In this document: positions 1 to 13,110 of the stretch, one piece after another
How the letters are laid out: each line of letters starts with the position of its first letter
How positions within the stretch are numbered: the first letter of the stretch is position 1
DNA from: Acidobacteriota bacterium
GTDB lineage: Bacteria > Acidobacteriota > UBA6911
Assembly (NCBI GenBank): GCA_012719455.1
Contig: JAAYAJ010000023.1
Location: forward strand, 33,045-97,044
Length of the DNA: 64,000 nucleotides
Direction of reading: 5' to 3'
Translations under genes and position numbers: made by a program
Notes under the pieces: model-generated
Told to the model about the DNA's origin: nothing
Databases searched by the model: none
Seen by the model: the letters and a program-made list of their open reading frames with translations, nothing else

Positions 1-259
1 GGCTGACGATATGGGCGGTGGCGTTGAGCACCGGCTTGCGGTTCGACATCGTCCTGCGGAGCGCGCAGGCGTTCTCGCAGATGTTGGCGCGGAAGACGTC
101 CGAGCAGCGCTGTCCCAGGGCTTCCTCCCGGGGAACTTGGGTGATCTCCTCGGCCGCCCGGTTGAAGCCCGTGATGCGCCATTCGAGATCGACGGTGAAG
201 ACCCCCTCGTTGATGGAATCCAGAATGGTCTGTTCCCTTCCTTCAGGCTGCCGGCTCAC
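1..259 (-). CDS. sigma-54-dependent transcriptional regulator, N-terminal PAS domain (partial; gene continues past window start). Putative GTG start at 259
   Basis: Minus-strand translation gives VSRQPEGREQTILDSINEGVFTVDLEWRITGFNRAAEEITQVPREEALGQRCSDVFRANICENACAL... This closely parallels the N-terminus of the complete regulator at 11695-13110 (ILESISDGVFTVDAGWNITSFNRAAEEITGV...RCSDVFRSSLCGQECAL). The frame is open to the window edge. Confidence 0.6.
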   Translation of the reverse strand, partial: MSRQPEGREQTILDSINEGVFTVDLEWRITGFNRAAEEITQVPREEALGQRCSDVFRANICENACALRRTMSNRKPVLNATAHIVS

Positions 260-356
260 ACACCCCCCATGTCAATGCAAAATGCAAAACAATAATACCA
301 TCATCCTTGCATTATGCAATACACATGCAGGCACAAAGGGACATTCCCGCCAGGGG

Positions 357-1142
357 TCACAGCCGCAGCGACAGTTTGCGGGCCGCGCGGCGGAACTGGC
401 GCGTCCCGCCCCCCTCGCTCACGGTTTTGAGGATCTGGGCGGAGTCCACGACCTGGAAGCCTGAAAGGAGGGTCACGCCGTACGGACGGAAGACTTCGGG
501 GAGGAAGGGGGTGGAGGGCCCGAGCACCGCGATCTCGCGCGCGCCCCGGCACAGCTCCAGCAGCCGGTCGATCGTTTGGTTCAGGAGCGACGACGCGGTC
601 AGGATAACGACGTCGCAAGCCGGAAGGTGCTCGCCCGCCGCCGTGTCGGGCAGGATGTCAAACTCCGGGTTGGATTTGCGCTCGAAGATGCAGAGCGAGC
701 CGGCGCGTTCCCTCAAAGGCGCGACCAGGGGCCCGAAATAGCCCACCATGCCGACGGCATCCCCGGCCCGCACCTGGAGGATCTCGGCGATGTCCGCCTC
801 CACAGCCGTTTCCGGGGCGGGGACGAGGGCGTTGAGCGTCGCCAAGCCCACGGCCGCCGCCGTCACGTTCGGATTCTTCAGCCACTCCACCAATTCCGCG
901 GCGGTGCGCCCGGCCACGCGTCCGGCCGCGGGCACCACGCAGCACGACTCGTACTCCCCCTCGTGCAGGGTATAGGCGAGGCCGCACGCCCCGTCGTCCA
1001 GGCAGACCGCCGTATAACCCAGTCCGATCCGGACATCGGCCGCCATCCTCTCCGCACCCAGCTCCTTCACCCGGTCCACCAGTTCGCTTGCCAGCATCTG
1101 CAATCCCCCTTTGCCGTCGATGCATGCAATCGGCATTCCCAT
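357..1142 (-). CDS. DUF364/DUF4213-family protein (Rossmann-like, putative cofactor or heavy-metal chelation domain)
   Basis: 261-aa ORF with a Gly-rich nucleotide-binding-like segment. Family assignment is from recall of DUF364 sequences. Lies directly upstream of and co-oriented with the partial sigma-54 regulator. Confidence 0.55.
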   Translation of the reverse strand: MGMPIACIDGKGGLQMLASELVDRVKELGAERMAADVRIGLGYTAVCLDDGACGLAYTLHEGEYESCCVVPAAGRVAGRTAAELVEWLKNPNVTAAAVGLATLNALVPAPETAVEADIAEILQVRAGDAVGMVGYFGPLVAPLRERAGSLCIFERKSNPEFDILPDTAAGEHLPACDVVILTASSLLNQTIDRLLELCRGAREIAVLGPSTPFLPEVFRPYGVTLLSGFQVVDSAQILKTVSEGGGTRQFRRAARKLSLRL

Positions 1143-1159
1143 CCCGGATCATCCGGTTG

Positions 1160-10780: not shown

Positions 10781-11688
10781 AAGAACTGGTGGTAATCAGC
10801 GGCAAGGGGGGGACCGGCAAGACCAGCCTGACCGCCTCGCTGGCCGCCCTGGCCGGCGACGCCGTGATCGCCGACTGCGACGTGGACGCGGCGGACCTTC
10901 ACCTGCTGCTCTCCCCCAAGGTGCTCAAGGTCGAGGAGTTCCGGAGCGGGCGCGAGGCCGTCATCCGTCCCGGAGACTGCATCGCCTGCGATGTCTGCCG
11001 CGACGTGTGCCGCTACGACGCCGTCCGCCCGGTCTTCGAAAACGGGCGCAAGGCGCACTATGCCGTGGACGCGATCGCGTGCGAGGGGTGCGGCGTGTGC
11101 GTCCGCTTCTGCCCCGAACACGCCATCGATTTCCCGGAACGGGTGTGCGGGGAGTACCGCATCGGCGAGACCCGCTTCGGCCCCATGGTTTACGCGCAAC
11201 TGGGAATCGGGGCGGAGAATTCGGGGAAGCTGGTATCGACCGTCCGCAAGGAAGCCCGCGCGATCGCCGACGACGGCAATGCACGCTGGATCCTGGTGGA
11301 CGGCCCGCCCGGCATCGCCTGCCCCGTCATTGCCTCCATCACCGGCAGTTCGCTCGCCCTGGTCGTGGTGGAGCCCACCCTTTCGGGCATCCACGACATG
11401 GAGCGGGTGCTCGAACTGACCCGCCACTTCGCCCTGCCGACCTTCGTCTGTATCAACAAATGGGAACTCAACCCACAGATGACCCAGGAGATCGAGGCCG
11501 CCGCACTGGCCGCCGGCGTCTCCCTGGCGGGGAGGATCGGTTACGACCGGGCGGTCACGGACGCGCAGATCCGGGGCCTGACGGTAGTGGAACACGGGGG
11601 TCGGGCGGCGGAGGATATCCGCGCCGTGTGGGCCGCCCTGGCCGACGCGCCGGGCGCTCCGGCGGCGCCCGCAACCATGGAAGTCTGA
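10777..11688 (+). CDS. MinD/ParA-superfamily P-loop ATPase with inserted 4Fe-4S ferredoxin domains (second paralogue)
   Basis: VVISGKGGTGKTS Walker A. Cys clusters CIACDVCRDVC and CEGCGVCVRFCP. The start was re-picked at the ATGA overlap with the upstream gene (the ORF track extends to 10573). Confidence 0.75.
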   Translation: MKELVVISGKGGTGKTSLTASLAALAGDAVIADCDVDAADLHLLLSPKVLKVEEFRSGREAVIRPGDCIACDVCRDVCRYDAVRPVFENGRKAHYAVDAIACEGCGVCVRFCPEHAIDFPERVCGEYRIGETRFGPMVYAQLGIGAENSGKLVSTVRKEARAIADDGNARWILVDGPPGIACPVIASITGSSLALVVVEPTLSGIHDMERVLELTRHFALPTFVCINKWELNPQMTQEIEAAALAAGVSLAGRIGYDRAVTDAQIRGLTVVEHGGRAAEDIRAVWAALADAPGAPAAPATMEV

Positions 11689-11694
11689 CCGGCC

Positions 11695-13110
11695 ATGCCA
11701 ACCGGGAAGCCGGAAAGCGGCCGGACGCCCAGGACCGACGAAGCGATCCTGGAAAGCATTTCCGACGGGGTTTTCACCGTCGACGCCGGGTGGAACATCA
11801 CCAGCTTCAACCGTGCGGCGGAGGAAATCACCGGAGTCGGCCGCGCCGACGCCATCGGCCGCCGCTGCAGCGACGTGTTTCGCTCGAGCCTGTGTGGACA
11901 GGAGTGCGCCCTCGGCAGGACGCTCAAGACGGGGAAACCGGTGATCAACCTCTCCGCCTACATCGTCAACGCCGCCGGAGAACGAATCCCCGTCAGCTTG
12001 TCGACCGCCGTGCTGCGGGACGCTTCCGGCCGCGTCATCGGCGGGGTGGAGACCTTCCGGGACCTCTCTGAAATCGAGGCGCTGCGCCGGGAACTCGAGG
12101 CCCACGTCCACGTCGGCGAAATCTCGAGCCGGAGCCCCCTTATGCGGCGCGTGCTGGAGGTCCTGCCCGCCGTCGCCGCCAGCCCCAGCACCGTGCTGAT
12201 CCTGGGAGAGACCGGGACCGGAAAGGAGGTGGTGGCCCGGACGATCCACGCGCAAAGCCCCCGCTGCAGGGGCCCGTTCGTCGCGGTCAACTGCGGCGCC
12301 CTCCCCGAGACCCTGCTTGAATCGGAGCTGTTCGGGTACCGCGCGGGAGCCTTCACCGGTGCGGTGAAGGACCGCCCGGGGCGCTTCGCCCTGGCGCGGG
12401 GCGGCACGCTCTTTCTCGACGAGATCACGGAAATCCCCCCGGCGATGCAGGTCAAGCTGCTGCGCGTGCTCCAGGAGCGGACCTACGAGCCCTTGGGATC
12501 CCTCCAGCCCGAAAGCACCGACGCACGCGTCATCGTCGCCGCCAACCGGGACCCTGCCGGACAGGTGCGCCGGGGGCTGTTACGGGAGGACCTCTACTAC
12601 CGCATCAACGTGGTGCGCATCGAACTCCCCCCCCTGCGGCGGCGCATGGAAGACCTTCCCCTCCTGGCCGGGGAATTCATCGCCCGCTTCAACCGGTTGC
12701 AGGGAAAACGGGTGGCCGGGATCGCGCCTGCAACCCTCCCCTTGCTCATGGCCCATGACTGGCCCGGCAACATCCGTGAACTGGAAAACGTCATCGAAAG
12801 GGCCTTCATCCTCTGCAGCGAGGGGGCCATCGAGCCCCGCCATCTCCCGGAGGAGATCGCGGGGGGGGAGGCGGGGCCGGGCGCCGGGGGGCGCATGAGG
12901 TCGGCCCACGACATCCTGGAGGCCCAGGCTATCCGGAGCGCCCTCGAGCAGGCCGGTTACAACCGGCTGCGCGCGGCGCGCGAACTGGGCATCCACAAGA
13001 CCACCCTCTTCCGGAAGATCAAAAAGCTGGGAATCGCGCTCCCCGACAGGGACGGCCGCTCCCGGGAAGGGGGGTCGCGCGGCGCGGAGGGGGCCGTCAG
13101 GCGTTTTTAA
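11695..13110 (+). CDS. sigma-54-dependent Fis-family transcriptional regulator with N-terminal PAS domain
   Basis: 471 aa. A PAS domain is followed by an AAA+ sigma-54 interaction domain (GETGTGKEVVARTIH, ESELFGY, GAFTGA) and a C-terminal HTH. The PAS domain has a C-x8-C-x3-C motif. It lies 6 bp after the second ATPase gene. Confidence 0.85.
   Translation: MPTGKPESGRTPRTDEAILESISDGVFTVDAGWNITSFNRAAEEITGVGRADAIGRRCSDVFRSSLCGQECALGRTLKTGKPVINLSAYIVNAAGERIPVSLSTAVLRDASGRVIGGVETFRDLSEIEALRRELEAHVHVGEISSRSPLMRRVLEVLPAVAASPSTVLILGETGTGKEVVARTIHAQSPRCRGPFVAVNCGALPETLLESELFGYRAGAFTGAVKDRPGRFALARGGTLFLDEITEIPPAMQVKLLRVLQERTYEPLGSLQPESTDARVIVAANRDPAGQVRRGLLREDLYYRINVVRIELPPLRRRMEDLPLLAGEFIARFNRLQGKRVAGIAPATLPLLMAHDWPGNIRELENVIERAFILCSEGAIEPRHLPEEIAGGEAGPGAGGRMRSAHDILEAQAIRSALEQAGYNRLRAARELGIHKTTLFRKIKKLGIALPDRDGRSREGGSRGAEGAVRRF

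Follow-up and report, generated by a model that had tools for sequence, protein, structure and literature searches.

A probable orp gene neighbourhood with two paralogous OrpR-family activators in an uncultured Acidobacteriota bacterium

Identity of the locus

We analysed a stretch of 64,000 nucleotides from an uncultured Acidobacteriota bacterium (assembly GCA_012719455.1, contig JAAYAJ010000023.1, positions 33,045 to 97,044), referred to as the window throughout, which has a G+C content of 63–69% over the region studied here. There is good reason to regard this region as a neighbourhood of orp genes (for ORange Protein complex, ORP) with two paralogous enhancer-binding proteins (EBPs) of the OrpR family, called EBP-A and EBP-B, with sigma-54 promoters and with a probable cascade leading from EBP-A to EBP-B. 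The ORP/OrpR system of Desulfovibrio, for which Fievet (2011) is reportedly a source on the regulator OrpR (DVU2106) and the orp operons of D. vulgaris, is already described, and the window holds a variant of it; new are the acidobacterial host, the two regulator paralogues, the position of a regulator at the operon end and the linked NifU/NifS/DUF364 gene set. In D. vulgaris Hildenborough (DvH), two orp operons are transcribed from sigma-54 promoters (PMC3897727; PMC4641369; PMC8359166), and their products are Orp8 (the orange protein, which has a NifX fold and carries a Mo-Cu-S cluster), the MinD-like proteins Orp3 and Orp4 with two [4Fe-4S] ferredoxin motifs apiece, Orp5, Orp7 and Orp9, which is MrpORP. 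The operons are activated by OrpR, an EBP with PAS-AAA+-HTH architecture (PMC8359166). Cell division is the role proposed for the ORP complex in DvH, and papers from 2011 to 2021 still called its function unclear.

For comparison, we collected the 80 best loci from a genome scan with an alignment of the PAS domains (1.11 Mb in total; none of them from DvH) and searched them with the window proteins by tblastn; neighbourhood counts were taken from the 50 loci that offer at least 6 kb downstream of the EBP gene. Locus L081 is from the same species as the window (~99% identical), which occurs in many metagenomes, while L090 and L091 represent the closest sister species (88–90% identity in EBP-A). 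The closest syntenic relative is L056 from an Acidobacteriota metagenome-assembled genome (MAG), with protein identities of 54–75%. EBPs of the A-type defined below are encoded in loci L087–L091, including L089 from Hydrogenedentes; L085 and L086 were left out of the A-type context, as one is frameshifted and the other short.

The orp operon of the window consists of the following features:

9452..9467, plus strand: sigma-54 promoter of the orp operon, TGGCACGACTCCTGCA, conserved in L056 as TGGCACGCATTCTGCA
9531..9896, plus strand: orange protein (Orp8-type NifX-fold protein, NifX-like 2), full-length match to PDB 2WFB (E = 4.6e-26)
9893..10780, plus strand: MinD/CbiA P-loop ATPase 1 with a 2x[4Fe-4S] ferredoxin insert (Orp3/Orp4-like), CbiA and Fer4 match
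10777..11688, plus strand: MinD/CbiA ATPase 2 with a 2x[4Fe-4S] insert (Orp3/Orp4-like), CbiA and Fer4 match
11695..13110, plus strand: EBP-B, B-type OrpR-family activator, last gene of the orp operon (PAS-AAA+-HTH_8)

Each of the two MinD-type ATPases carries two CxxCxxCxxxC motifs; they share a mutual identity of ~31%, and their likeness to Orp3 and Orp4 is one of architecture. All genes and motifs listed by the first-pass annotation of this DNA are present with the domains it had given them. Its description of an uncharacterised system has to be given up, because the operon (its module B) matches ORP/OrpR of Desulfovibrio in the orange protein (2WFB, E = 4.6e-26), the Orp3/Orp4-like ATPases and the Cys signature of OrpR. 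Genes of the orp5-like, DUF5320, Mrp, TrmO or radical-SAM families do not occur in the 64-kb window, and the NCBIfam model for MrpORP gave only sub-threshold partial matches there, with no fusion of Mrp/NBP35 and DiNase domains in the 64 kb. We infer that the orp5-like gene of related loci corresponds to Orp5 and DUF5320 to Orp7. No NCBIfam model scored above its cut-off for the EBPs, NifX-like 1 or the DUF364, DsrE-like, metallo-beta-lactamase-fold (MBL) and DUF169 proteins, and an Rfam scan of positions 1–14600 gave no matches.

Two OrpR-family regulators

The second regulator gene lies at the left edge of the window:

1..259, minus strand: EBP-A, PAS N-terminus of an A-type OrpR-family activator; the full gene runs past the window start

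It had been reported as a second, partial PAS-EBP. A PAS-EBP is indeed present, but it looks partial only because the window edge cuts its gene; the complete protein from L081 comprises 439 aa with PAS-AAA+-HTH_8 architecture. EBP-A and EBP-B are 54% identical, and both consist of an N-terminal PAS domain, a sigma-54 AAA+ domain and a C-terminal Fis-type HTH domain (in the case of EBP-A, as read from L081). Both carry the motif RCSDVFRxxxCxxxCAL (C-x-D-x6-C-x3-C), whose residues C52, D54, C61 and C65 in EBP-A have the same numbers as in DvH OrpR and correspond to C58, D60, C67 and C71 in EBP-B. The signature of DvH OrpR consists of PAS residues C52, C61 and C65 plus an Asp or Glu two residues past the first Cys, and serves redox sensing by a [4Fe-4S] cluster (PMC8359166). 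UV-visible and electron paramagnetic resonance (EPR) spectra of OrpR indicated a [4Fe-4S]2+ cluster converting to [3Fe-4S]1+, a Cys-to-Ser triple mutant was blind to the signal, and oxidation stopped activation while DNA binding was retained (PMC8359166).

The first-pass annotation had taken the Cys triad for a metal, Fe-S or redox sensor and had named in advance its conservation among homologous EBPs as the point where this idea could fail. A search with the PAS domain of EBP-B retrieved 730 proteins at E ≤ 1e-5, and among the 120 listed, the C-x8-C-x3-C motif is present in 118, all of which have an Asp or Glu at position +2; among full-length homologues of EBP-A, it is present in 119 of 120, together with the GAFTDA motif in all 120. 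Together with the experiments on OrpR (PMC8359166), this conservation bears the sensor proposal out. A triad which instead binds e.g. Zn or forms a redox disulfide, so that the regulators sense not redox potential but a metal or a thiol oxidant, is very improbable: the conserved ligands are just three Cys and one carboxylate, and the coordination mode is unsettled even for DvH OrpR (PMC8359166), yet the spectra and the signal-blind mutant of OrpR speak for a cluster, and the Cys motif of the window proteins is identical to that of DvH OrpR.

Genome scanning with the PAS alignment showed that proteins of this type occur in at least 584 species-level genomes from many phyla, and the proteins of the window's species in Acidobacteriota MAGs carry no annotation beyond "sigma 54-interacting transcriptional regulator". 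EBP-A contains the GAFTDA motif and the HTH sequence QLGIDPSTLYRK, EBP-B a GAFTGA motif and the HTH sequence ELGIHKTTLFRK followed by the tail LGIALPDRDGR. These features recur in the homologues: the A-type (EBP-A and L087–L091) combines the GAFTDA loop with the recognition helix QLGI[DN]PSTLYRK and the box TTGCA-N3-TGCAA, and the B-type (EBP-B and most retrieved loci) combines GAFTGA with the helix ELGIHKTTLFR[KR], the tail LGIxLPxxDGR and the box (A)GTAGC-N6-GCTAC(T), which occurs twice, at a distance of ~32 bp, between the stop codon of the EBP gene and a sigma-54 promoter. Judged by sequence, EBP-A and EBP-B belong to separate subfamilies with distinct predicted DNA-binding helices. Comparing the 42-aa DNA-binding domain of DVU2106 by eye, we found identities of ~31% to the A-type and ~38% to the B-type and a different recognition helix. 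Because this domain and the GGGC-N9-GCCC boxes of DVU2106 differ from both subfamilies, DVU2106 would be a member of the same sensor family with a third type of specificity.

Sigma-54 promoters of the locus

The sequence TGGCACGACTCCTGCA at 9452 is the sole match to TGGYAY-N6-TGCW in the window (0.33 expected, which alone is not significant) and the top site in a weighted scan. The first-pass annotation had proposed a sigma-54 promoter here, and in agreement with this, the site occupies intergenic DNA 64 bp ahead of the ATG codon and has its counterpart TGGCACGCATTCTGCA at the equivalent position in L056, where the surrounding DNA has otherwise diverged. As also noted earlier, EBP-B follows the second ATPase gene after a gap of 6 bp; no terminator is predicted before it, scans of the region for intrinsic terminators and for sigma-70 promoters having stayed at background level. 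The genes for the orange protein, both MinD-like Fe-S ATPases and EBP-B form a single operon driven by the conserved 9452 promoter. In about 28 of the 80 loci, a high-scoring sigma-54 site lies 150–175 bp past the EBP stop codon, to be set against a total of just 66 sites of this kind in the 1.11 Mb, which indicates that the usual layout is EBP, enhancer, sigma-54 promoter and operon; the window and L056 are unusual in having the EBP at the operon end.

The remaining genes and promoter candidates of the region are as follows:

357..1097, minus strand: DUF364/DUF4213 protein, first gene of a DUF364-EBP-A-TrmO_N unit (domain match)
1125..1140, minus strand: sigma-54-type candidate before the DUF364 gene, GGGAATGCCGATTGCA, identical in L090/L091
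1160..1175, plus strand: sigma-54-type candidate of the NifX1 operon, AGGACCGCAAATTGCA, GG-N10-TTGC conserved
1190..1217, plus strand: sigma-70-like promoter ATGAAA-N16-TATACT, possible basal promoter of the NifX1 operon, hexamers conserved in L090/L091
1268..1642, plus strand: NifX-like 1 (PF02579) with a Cys/His-rich C-terminus (domain match)
1675..2103, plus strand: 4HBT-fold thioesterase (domain match)
2188..2637, plus strand: NifU_N/IscU-type Fe-S scaffold (domain match)
2634..3779, plus strand: NifS/IscS-type cysteine desulfurase (domain match)
3785..4510, minus strand: DUF169 protein (domain match)
4564..5514, minus strand: MBL protein (domain match)
5568..5583, minus strand: sigma-54-type candidate before MBL-DUF169, TGGCCGGAGAATTGCA, conserved island TGGCCGGATTCTTGCT in L090/L091
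5598..5613, plus strand: sigma-54-like match before the DsrE-like gene (candidate), TGGCCCATAAAATGCA, pattern match only
5656..5976, plus strand: DsrE-like protein (domain match)
6073..7428, plus strand: purple-acid-phosphatase-like metallophosphatase; gene callers start at 6121
7478..9196, minus strand: CoA-disulfide-reductase-like flavoprotein with a C-terminal rhodanese domain (CoADR-rhodanese; domain match)

Module A had been thought to mirror module B, but the gene arrangement contradicts this, as a DUF364-EBP-A-TrmO_N unit diverges from a NifX1-4HBT-NifU-NifS unit and NifX-like 1 is no orange protein. It matches MTH1175 at 1.4e-8 and 2WFB only at 5.6e-4, and appears from these matches to be a distant paralogue instead of an orthologue of the orange protein. 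The start codon of the DUF364 gene is ATG 1097, which is conserved as ATGCTGG with the Shine-Dalgarno sequence AAGGGGGA; a start at 1142 was rejected, since that ATG is lost in L081. L087, L090 and L091 lack both the DsrE-like gene and the 5598 site, which in this comparison are confined to the window's species.

As bare patterns with up to two mismatches, sigma-54 sites are no more frequent in the window than expected (54 found vs. 48.7 expected), and those at 1160 and 5598 are no better than chance. The -24/-12 candidate at 1160, which had been proposed before, is nevertheless supported by its conservation rather than by pattern strength: GG-N10-TTGC is kept in five genomes (AGGACCGCAAATTGCA, CGGCCCCCAAATTGCA, CGGCCCCAAAATTGCG, GGGCGGGCACATTGCG and AGGTCAGGAAATTGCT). 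We further found two conserved candidates that the earlier annotation had missed, 1140(-), with the counterparts GGGCACGACGCGTGCA in L087 and GGGCACACCAATTGCA in L088 and the common pattern GGGCAC-N5-[GT]TGCA, and 5583(-). The GG and TTGC elements at exact N10 spacing are kept in 5, 5 and 3 genomes for 1140, 1160 and 5583, respectively, while the flanks diverge. Because of this conservation before all three units, DUF364-EBP-A, NifX1-4HBT-NifU-NifS and MBL-DUF169 probably belong to the same sigma-54 regulon. Two further assignments were discarded. An A-type operator at 1160 does not fit L088, L090 and L091, which retain GG-N10-TTGC but have a broken palindrome, and TGGTAT...TTTGCA at ~300 has the wrong spacing for a sigma-54 promoter of EBP-A.

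Alternatively, only the orp operon (9452–13110) may depend on sigma-54 and OrpR, the other genes being sigma-70-dependent housekeeping or stress neighbours whose weak -24/-12 matches arise by chance or represent other conserved elements. NifU and NifS are typically essential housekeeping proteins in anaerobes, and several observations weigh in this direction and against a regulon spanning the region. The weak sites occur at chance frequency as bare patterns, and the -24 boxes of the 1140, 1160 and 5583 promoters are weak. The conserved sigma-70-like promoter ahead of NifX1 implies that NifU/NifS may be largely housekeeping. Finally, there is no enhancer at the usual distance (-80 to -160) from 1140, 1160 or 5583, the A-type sites nearest to the 1140/1160 pair (275–319 and 2125–2137) being 800–950 bp off. 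We nevertheless consider this restriction to the orp operon doubtful, because GG and TTGC are kept at N10 despite diverged flanks, the same gene families lie within sigma-54-driven orp operons of other phyla, and a conserved A-type site is located inside the NifX1 operon.

Two potential secondary structures were observed in the presumed leaders of these units. An inverted repeat CCGGTTGCTGAAAACCGG at 1224–1241 in the NifX1 5' leader is conserved with minor differences in L090/L091, has no Rfam match and may act as an RNA hairpin or as a site for a protein. The MBL leader contains a perfect G+C-rich hairpin GGGGCCGCAGCCGGCCCC (5539–5556), downstream of the 5583(-) promoter and ahead of the start codon; L091 has a similar sequence, GGGCCTGCCGCGGCCC, which L090 lacks.

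Enhancer sites and the order of the regulators

Palindromes of the A-type and related sites were found at five positions, none of them assigned to a strand:

275..287: A-type palindrome ATGCAAAATGCAA, proximal to the EBP-A start, putative operator/enhancer, conserved in L087, L088, L090 and L091
307..319: A-type palindrome TTGCATTATGCAA, 32 bp from the first, conserved in L087, L088, L090 and L091
2125..2137: palindrome TTGCATTTTGCGC resembling the A-type, between the 4HBT and NifU genes; L090/L091 have the conserved counterpart TTGCATTTTGCAC
9333..9345: weak A-type half-site ATGCAAAACACCC, distal, preceding the proximal site by 32 bp, read from sequence
9365..9377: proximal A-type site GGGCATTTTGCAA, putative enhancer, centred at ~-107 relative to the inferred start of transcription

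The pattern TTGCA-N3-TGCAA has 5 matches in the window vs. 0.93 expected, a number reached in none of 100 shuffles, while B-type boxes are not found beyond chance in the window. The palindrome at 307–319 overlaps the -35 element of a sigma-70-like promoter on the minus strand (TTGCAT at 319–314, N16, TATTAT at 297–292), and the A-type palindromes overlap such a TTGCAT-N16-TAnnnT promoter in 4 of 5 genomes. The enhancer before 9452 consists of tandem TGCA-N3-TGCAA-type sites 32 bp apart, like the pair before the EBP-A gene. In L056, the layout before orp8 is the same as at 9333–9377, with a weak site followed 32 bp on by the perfect site GTTGCATAGTGCAAC, which matches the operator sites of EBP-A in that genome. 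Locus L089, where the A-type EBP gene is flanked by divergent orp operons, has an A-type pair between this gene and a divergent sigma-54-dependent orp operon, and a third A-type site ahead of a downstream sigma-54 promoter.

The first-pass annotation had assumed that EBP-B autoregulates its own operon, with EBP-A separately controlling module A in a parallel and independent circuit. This model draws on the co-linearity of EBP-B with the operon (6-bp gap, no predicted terminator, layout kept in L056) and on the likeness of A- and B-type half-sites (GTTGC/GCAAC in L056), which differ mainly by 1 bp of spacing and may therefore allow cross-recognition by the two EBPs. It is nonetheless rather unlikely and autoregulation doubtful, since the upstream enhancer of 9452 and its L056 counterpart have the N3-centred A-type geometry found before EBP-A genes. 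B-type EBPs elsewhere adjoin GTAGC-N6-GCTAC boxes, which are lacking in the window, and the B-type box of L056 (GTTGCGCTTCTGCAAC) serves another gene. This gene is small and NifX-like (orp5-like), is oriented convergently with the EBP-B orthologue and has no counterpart in the window. In the L056 segment 11350–11930, this palindrome lies ~125–135 bp upstream of a perfect consensus sigma-54 promoter TGGCACGGCATTTGCA (11790, minus strand).

From the site types, EBP-A rather than EBP-B would drive promoter 9452, making the expression of EBP-B dependent on EBP-A. With an A-type enhancer at 9452 and no B-type box in the window, a cascade from EBP-A via the orp operon to EBP-B is more likely than autoregulation of EBP-B. 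Further reservations about this assignment are that the proximal site 9365–9377 has two mismatches to the 13-mer consensus, that the distal one is a half-site only, and that assigning the sites to EBP-A over EBP-B follows co-occurrence. For the OrpR identity itself, orthology is deduced from the signature residues, the domain architecture and the genes nearby, the ability to bind Fe-S and to switch with redox would be carried over from one Desulfovibrio protein, and the DNA-binding domain and GGGC-N9-GCCC box of DVU2106 are unlike those of both subfamilies.

Gene neighbourhood in related loci

The idea of one linked sigma-54 gene set draws support from the recurrence of the same families (NifX/ORP, MinD-Fer4, MBL, NifU, 4HBT, CoADR-rhodanese, DUF364 and DsrE-like) beside OrpR-like EBPs in other phyla, by which comparative genomics supports a functional linkage. 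Downstream of the EBP gene, ORP was found in 30 of the 50 loci, MinD-Fer4 in 30 (first copy) and 29 (second copy), radical SAM and Mrp in 17 each, MBL in 16, NifU in 10, 4HBT in 8, TrmO_N in 6 and CoADR-rhodanese in 4 (4–5 related loci in all). DUF364 adjoins the EBP in 5 loci, and of all 80 loci, 58 contain an orp5-like NifX/Gly-rich gene and 42 a DUF5320 gene.

To the left of the window start, L081 has a gene for a TrmO_N-domain protein of 164 aa (7143–7637, minus strand) 35 bp after EBP-A. TrmO_N also follows the A-type EBPs of L087, L089, L090 and L091 and occurs in 10 of 80 B-type loci, and appears to be an accessory member of orp neighbourhoods that has gone unrecognised. Beyond EBP-A and TrmO_N, L081 encodes a HisKA sensor kinase, a FUR-family regulator and an AhpC-type peroxiredoxin (3111–6583), an oxidative-stress set near the orp genes. 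In L063 (9896–14007) and L069, from Desulfovibrionaceae and Desulfomicrobium MAGs, a B-type EBP is followed by genes for an Mrp/NBP35 (NUBPL-type) ATPase and an MBL-fold protein, without orange protein or MinD-Fer4 genes, representing a minimal regulon variant. NifX-like and radical-SAM genes precede CoADR-rhodanese in the same orientation in L090 (1–2968) and L091 (1–2933); as orp8-orp3-orp4-EBP-B is not divergent from CoADR there, module B varies in its position even inside this lineage. The closest retrieved homologue of the DsrE-like protein is 71% identical and encoded inside an Omnitrophota orp operon (L020:16152-16469), and this distribution over the window's species and L020 hints at horizontal acquisition.

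Downstream of the orp operon, a C_GCAxxG_C_C gene (putative redox-active protein; 13097–13735, minus strand) runs towards EBP-B and shares 14 bp with the 3' end of the EBP-B gene; its homologue in L056 is on the opposite strand, and the orp5-like gene takes the convergent position there. It is followed by genes for a staphylococcal-nuclease/Ada-Zn fusion (13902–14513, minus strand) and an F420-0:gamma-glutamyl-ligase-like protein (14607–15887, minus strand), for which no link to orp was seen. Far from this region, a Fur-family regulator gene (51813–52175, minus strand) is followed by a high-scoring sigma-54-like match TGGCAAGAGCCTTGCA (51803 to 51788) and the long palindrome AATGCAAGATCATTTGCAAT; 51740–52175 probably corresponds to an operator region of the Fur/PerR type, with the sigma-54 match there likely fortuitous.

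Proposed mechanism and significance

By analogy with D. vulgaris OrpR, the PAS domain of each EBP would hold a redox-sensitive [4Fe-4S] cluster with its ligands in C-x-[D/E]-x6-C-x3-C. As long as the redox potential is low, the holo-PAS domain may let the AAA+ domain remodel sigma-54 RNA polymerase, whereas oxidation would damage the cluster and cause the PAS domain to block activation with the DNA still bound. EBP-A would bind TGCA-N3-TGCAA-type sites via the helix QLGI[DN]PSTLYRK, repress its own sigma-70-like promoter and activate the orp operon and hence EBP-B, which in turn might act via the helix GIHKTTLFRK at B-type boxes (GTnGC-N6-GCnAC) outside the window. Under reducing conditions, the gene set would supply or repair Fe-S or heterometal-sulfide clusters and handle persulfide sulfur.

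We infer from the gene neighbourhood that ORP is involved in metallocluster and sulfur handling rather than cell division. A more far-reaching proposal is tentative: the OrpR-family paralogues may form a two-tier redox cascade, in which EBP-B controls orp5/DUF5320-type targets elsewhere, and ORP may be a redox-gated machine for metallocluster assembly or repair instead of a cell-division factor. If true, ORP would be marked as such a metallocluster machine by its conserved linkage, in more than 15 phyla, with genes of the NifU/NifS, Mrp, radical-SAM, MBL, DsrE-like and rhodanese families. The ORP complex is conserved in anaerobes and has so far been studied only in Desulfovibrio, and the recurrent Fe-S scaffold, desulfurase, Mrp, radical-SAM and sulfur-transfer neighbours provide testable hints to a function in metallocluster handling under reducing conditions. 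The family of OrpR-type Fe-S PAS regulators extends far beyond the Deltaproteobacteria where it was described, to Acidobacteriota, Planctomycetota, Verrucomicrobiota, Spirochaetota, Fibrobacterota, Omnitrophota, Hydrogenedentes and others, and divides into subfamilies with their own DNA-binding helices and box geometries, so that genes labelled merely "sigma 54-interacting transcriptional regulator" can now receive names.

Comparison with known systems

Labile [4Fe-4S] clusters are also used as sensing cofactors by NreB and FNR, in NreB likewise within a PAS domain. Unlike the OrpR type, these proteins have four Cys ligands and act through a kinase or a CRP-type factor with no link to sigma-54.

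The closest known system is that of DvH, whose regulator OrpR (DVU2106) shares with the proteins described here the PAS-AAA+-HTH_8 architecture and the residues C52, D/E54, C61 and C65, and with EBP-A also the GAFTDA loop. Sigma-54 promoters precede the orp genes in both organisms, and the OrpR targets as well as the window operon encode an orange protein and two MinD-like 2x[4Fe-4S] ATPases. Tandem palindromic enhancer sites are ~31–32 bp apart at ~-100 to -160 in both cases, with a 17-bp palindrome in common. The sites of the DvH regulator overlap its own sigma-70 promoter, resulting in negative autoregulation (PMC3897727), and those of EBP-A and L089 are laid out likewise. The systems differ in that DvH has one regulator between two divergent orp operons, whereas the window has two paralogues and one co-linear operon ending in a regulator. 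Orp5-like, DUF5320 and MrpORP genes belong to the DvH-type cluster and are absent from the window, which comes from an acidobacterial host and has an attached NifU/NifS/DUF364/MBL/DUF169/DsrE/CoADR set. The OrpR box of Desulfovibrionales, GGGC-N9-GCCC (GGGCGYRTTTTGCGCCC), is not the type used in the window and its relatives, where the boxes are TTGCA-N3-TGCAA and GTnGC-N6-GCnAC, in keeping with the different DNA-binding helix. Reading the DvH box as GCA-N3-TGC was rejected, because the Desulfovibrionales boxes conserve the outer GGGC/GCCC and not the inner GCA/TGC.

The orange protein of D. gigas (PDB 2WFB) is a non-covalent carrier of a [S2MoS2CuS2MoS2]3- cluster. NifX-like 2 aligns with it over the full length and belongs to the same single-domain NifX/MTH1175 fold family (PF02579). 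NifX-like 1 is distant and has a Cys/His-rich tail. As in the system of MrpORP (Orp9) and the Orp3-Orp4-Orp8 subcomplex (PMC6345978), Orp3/Orp4-type ATPases stand beside the orange protein in the window, where, in place of an Mrp fusion, which is missing from the 64 kb, a NifU/NifS pair is the linked Fe-S supplier.

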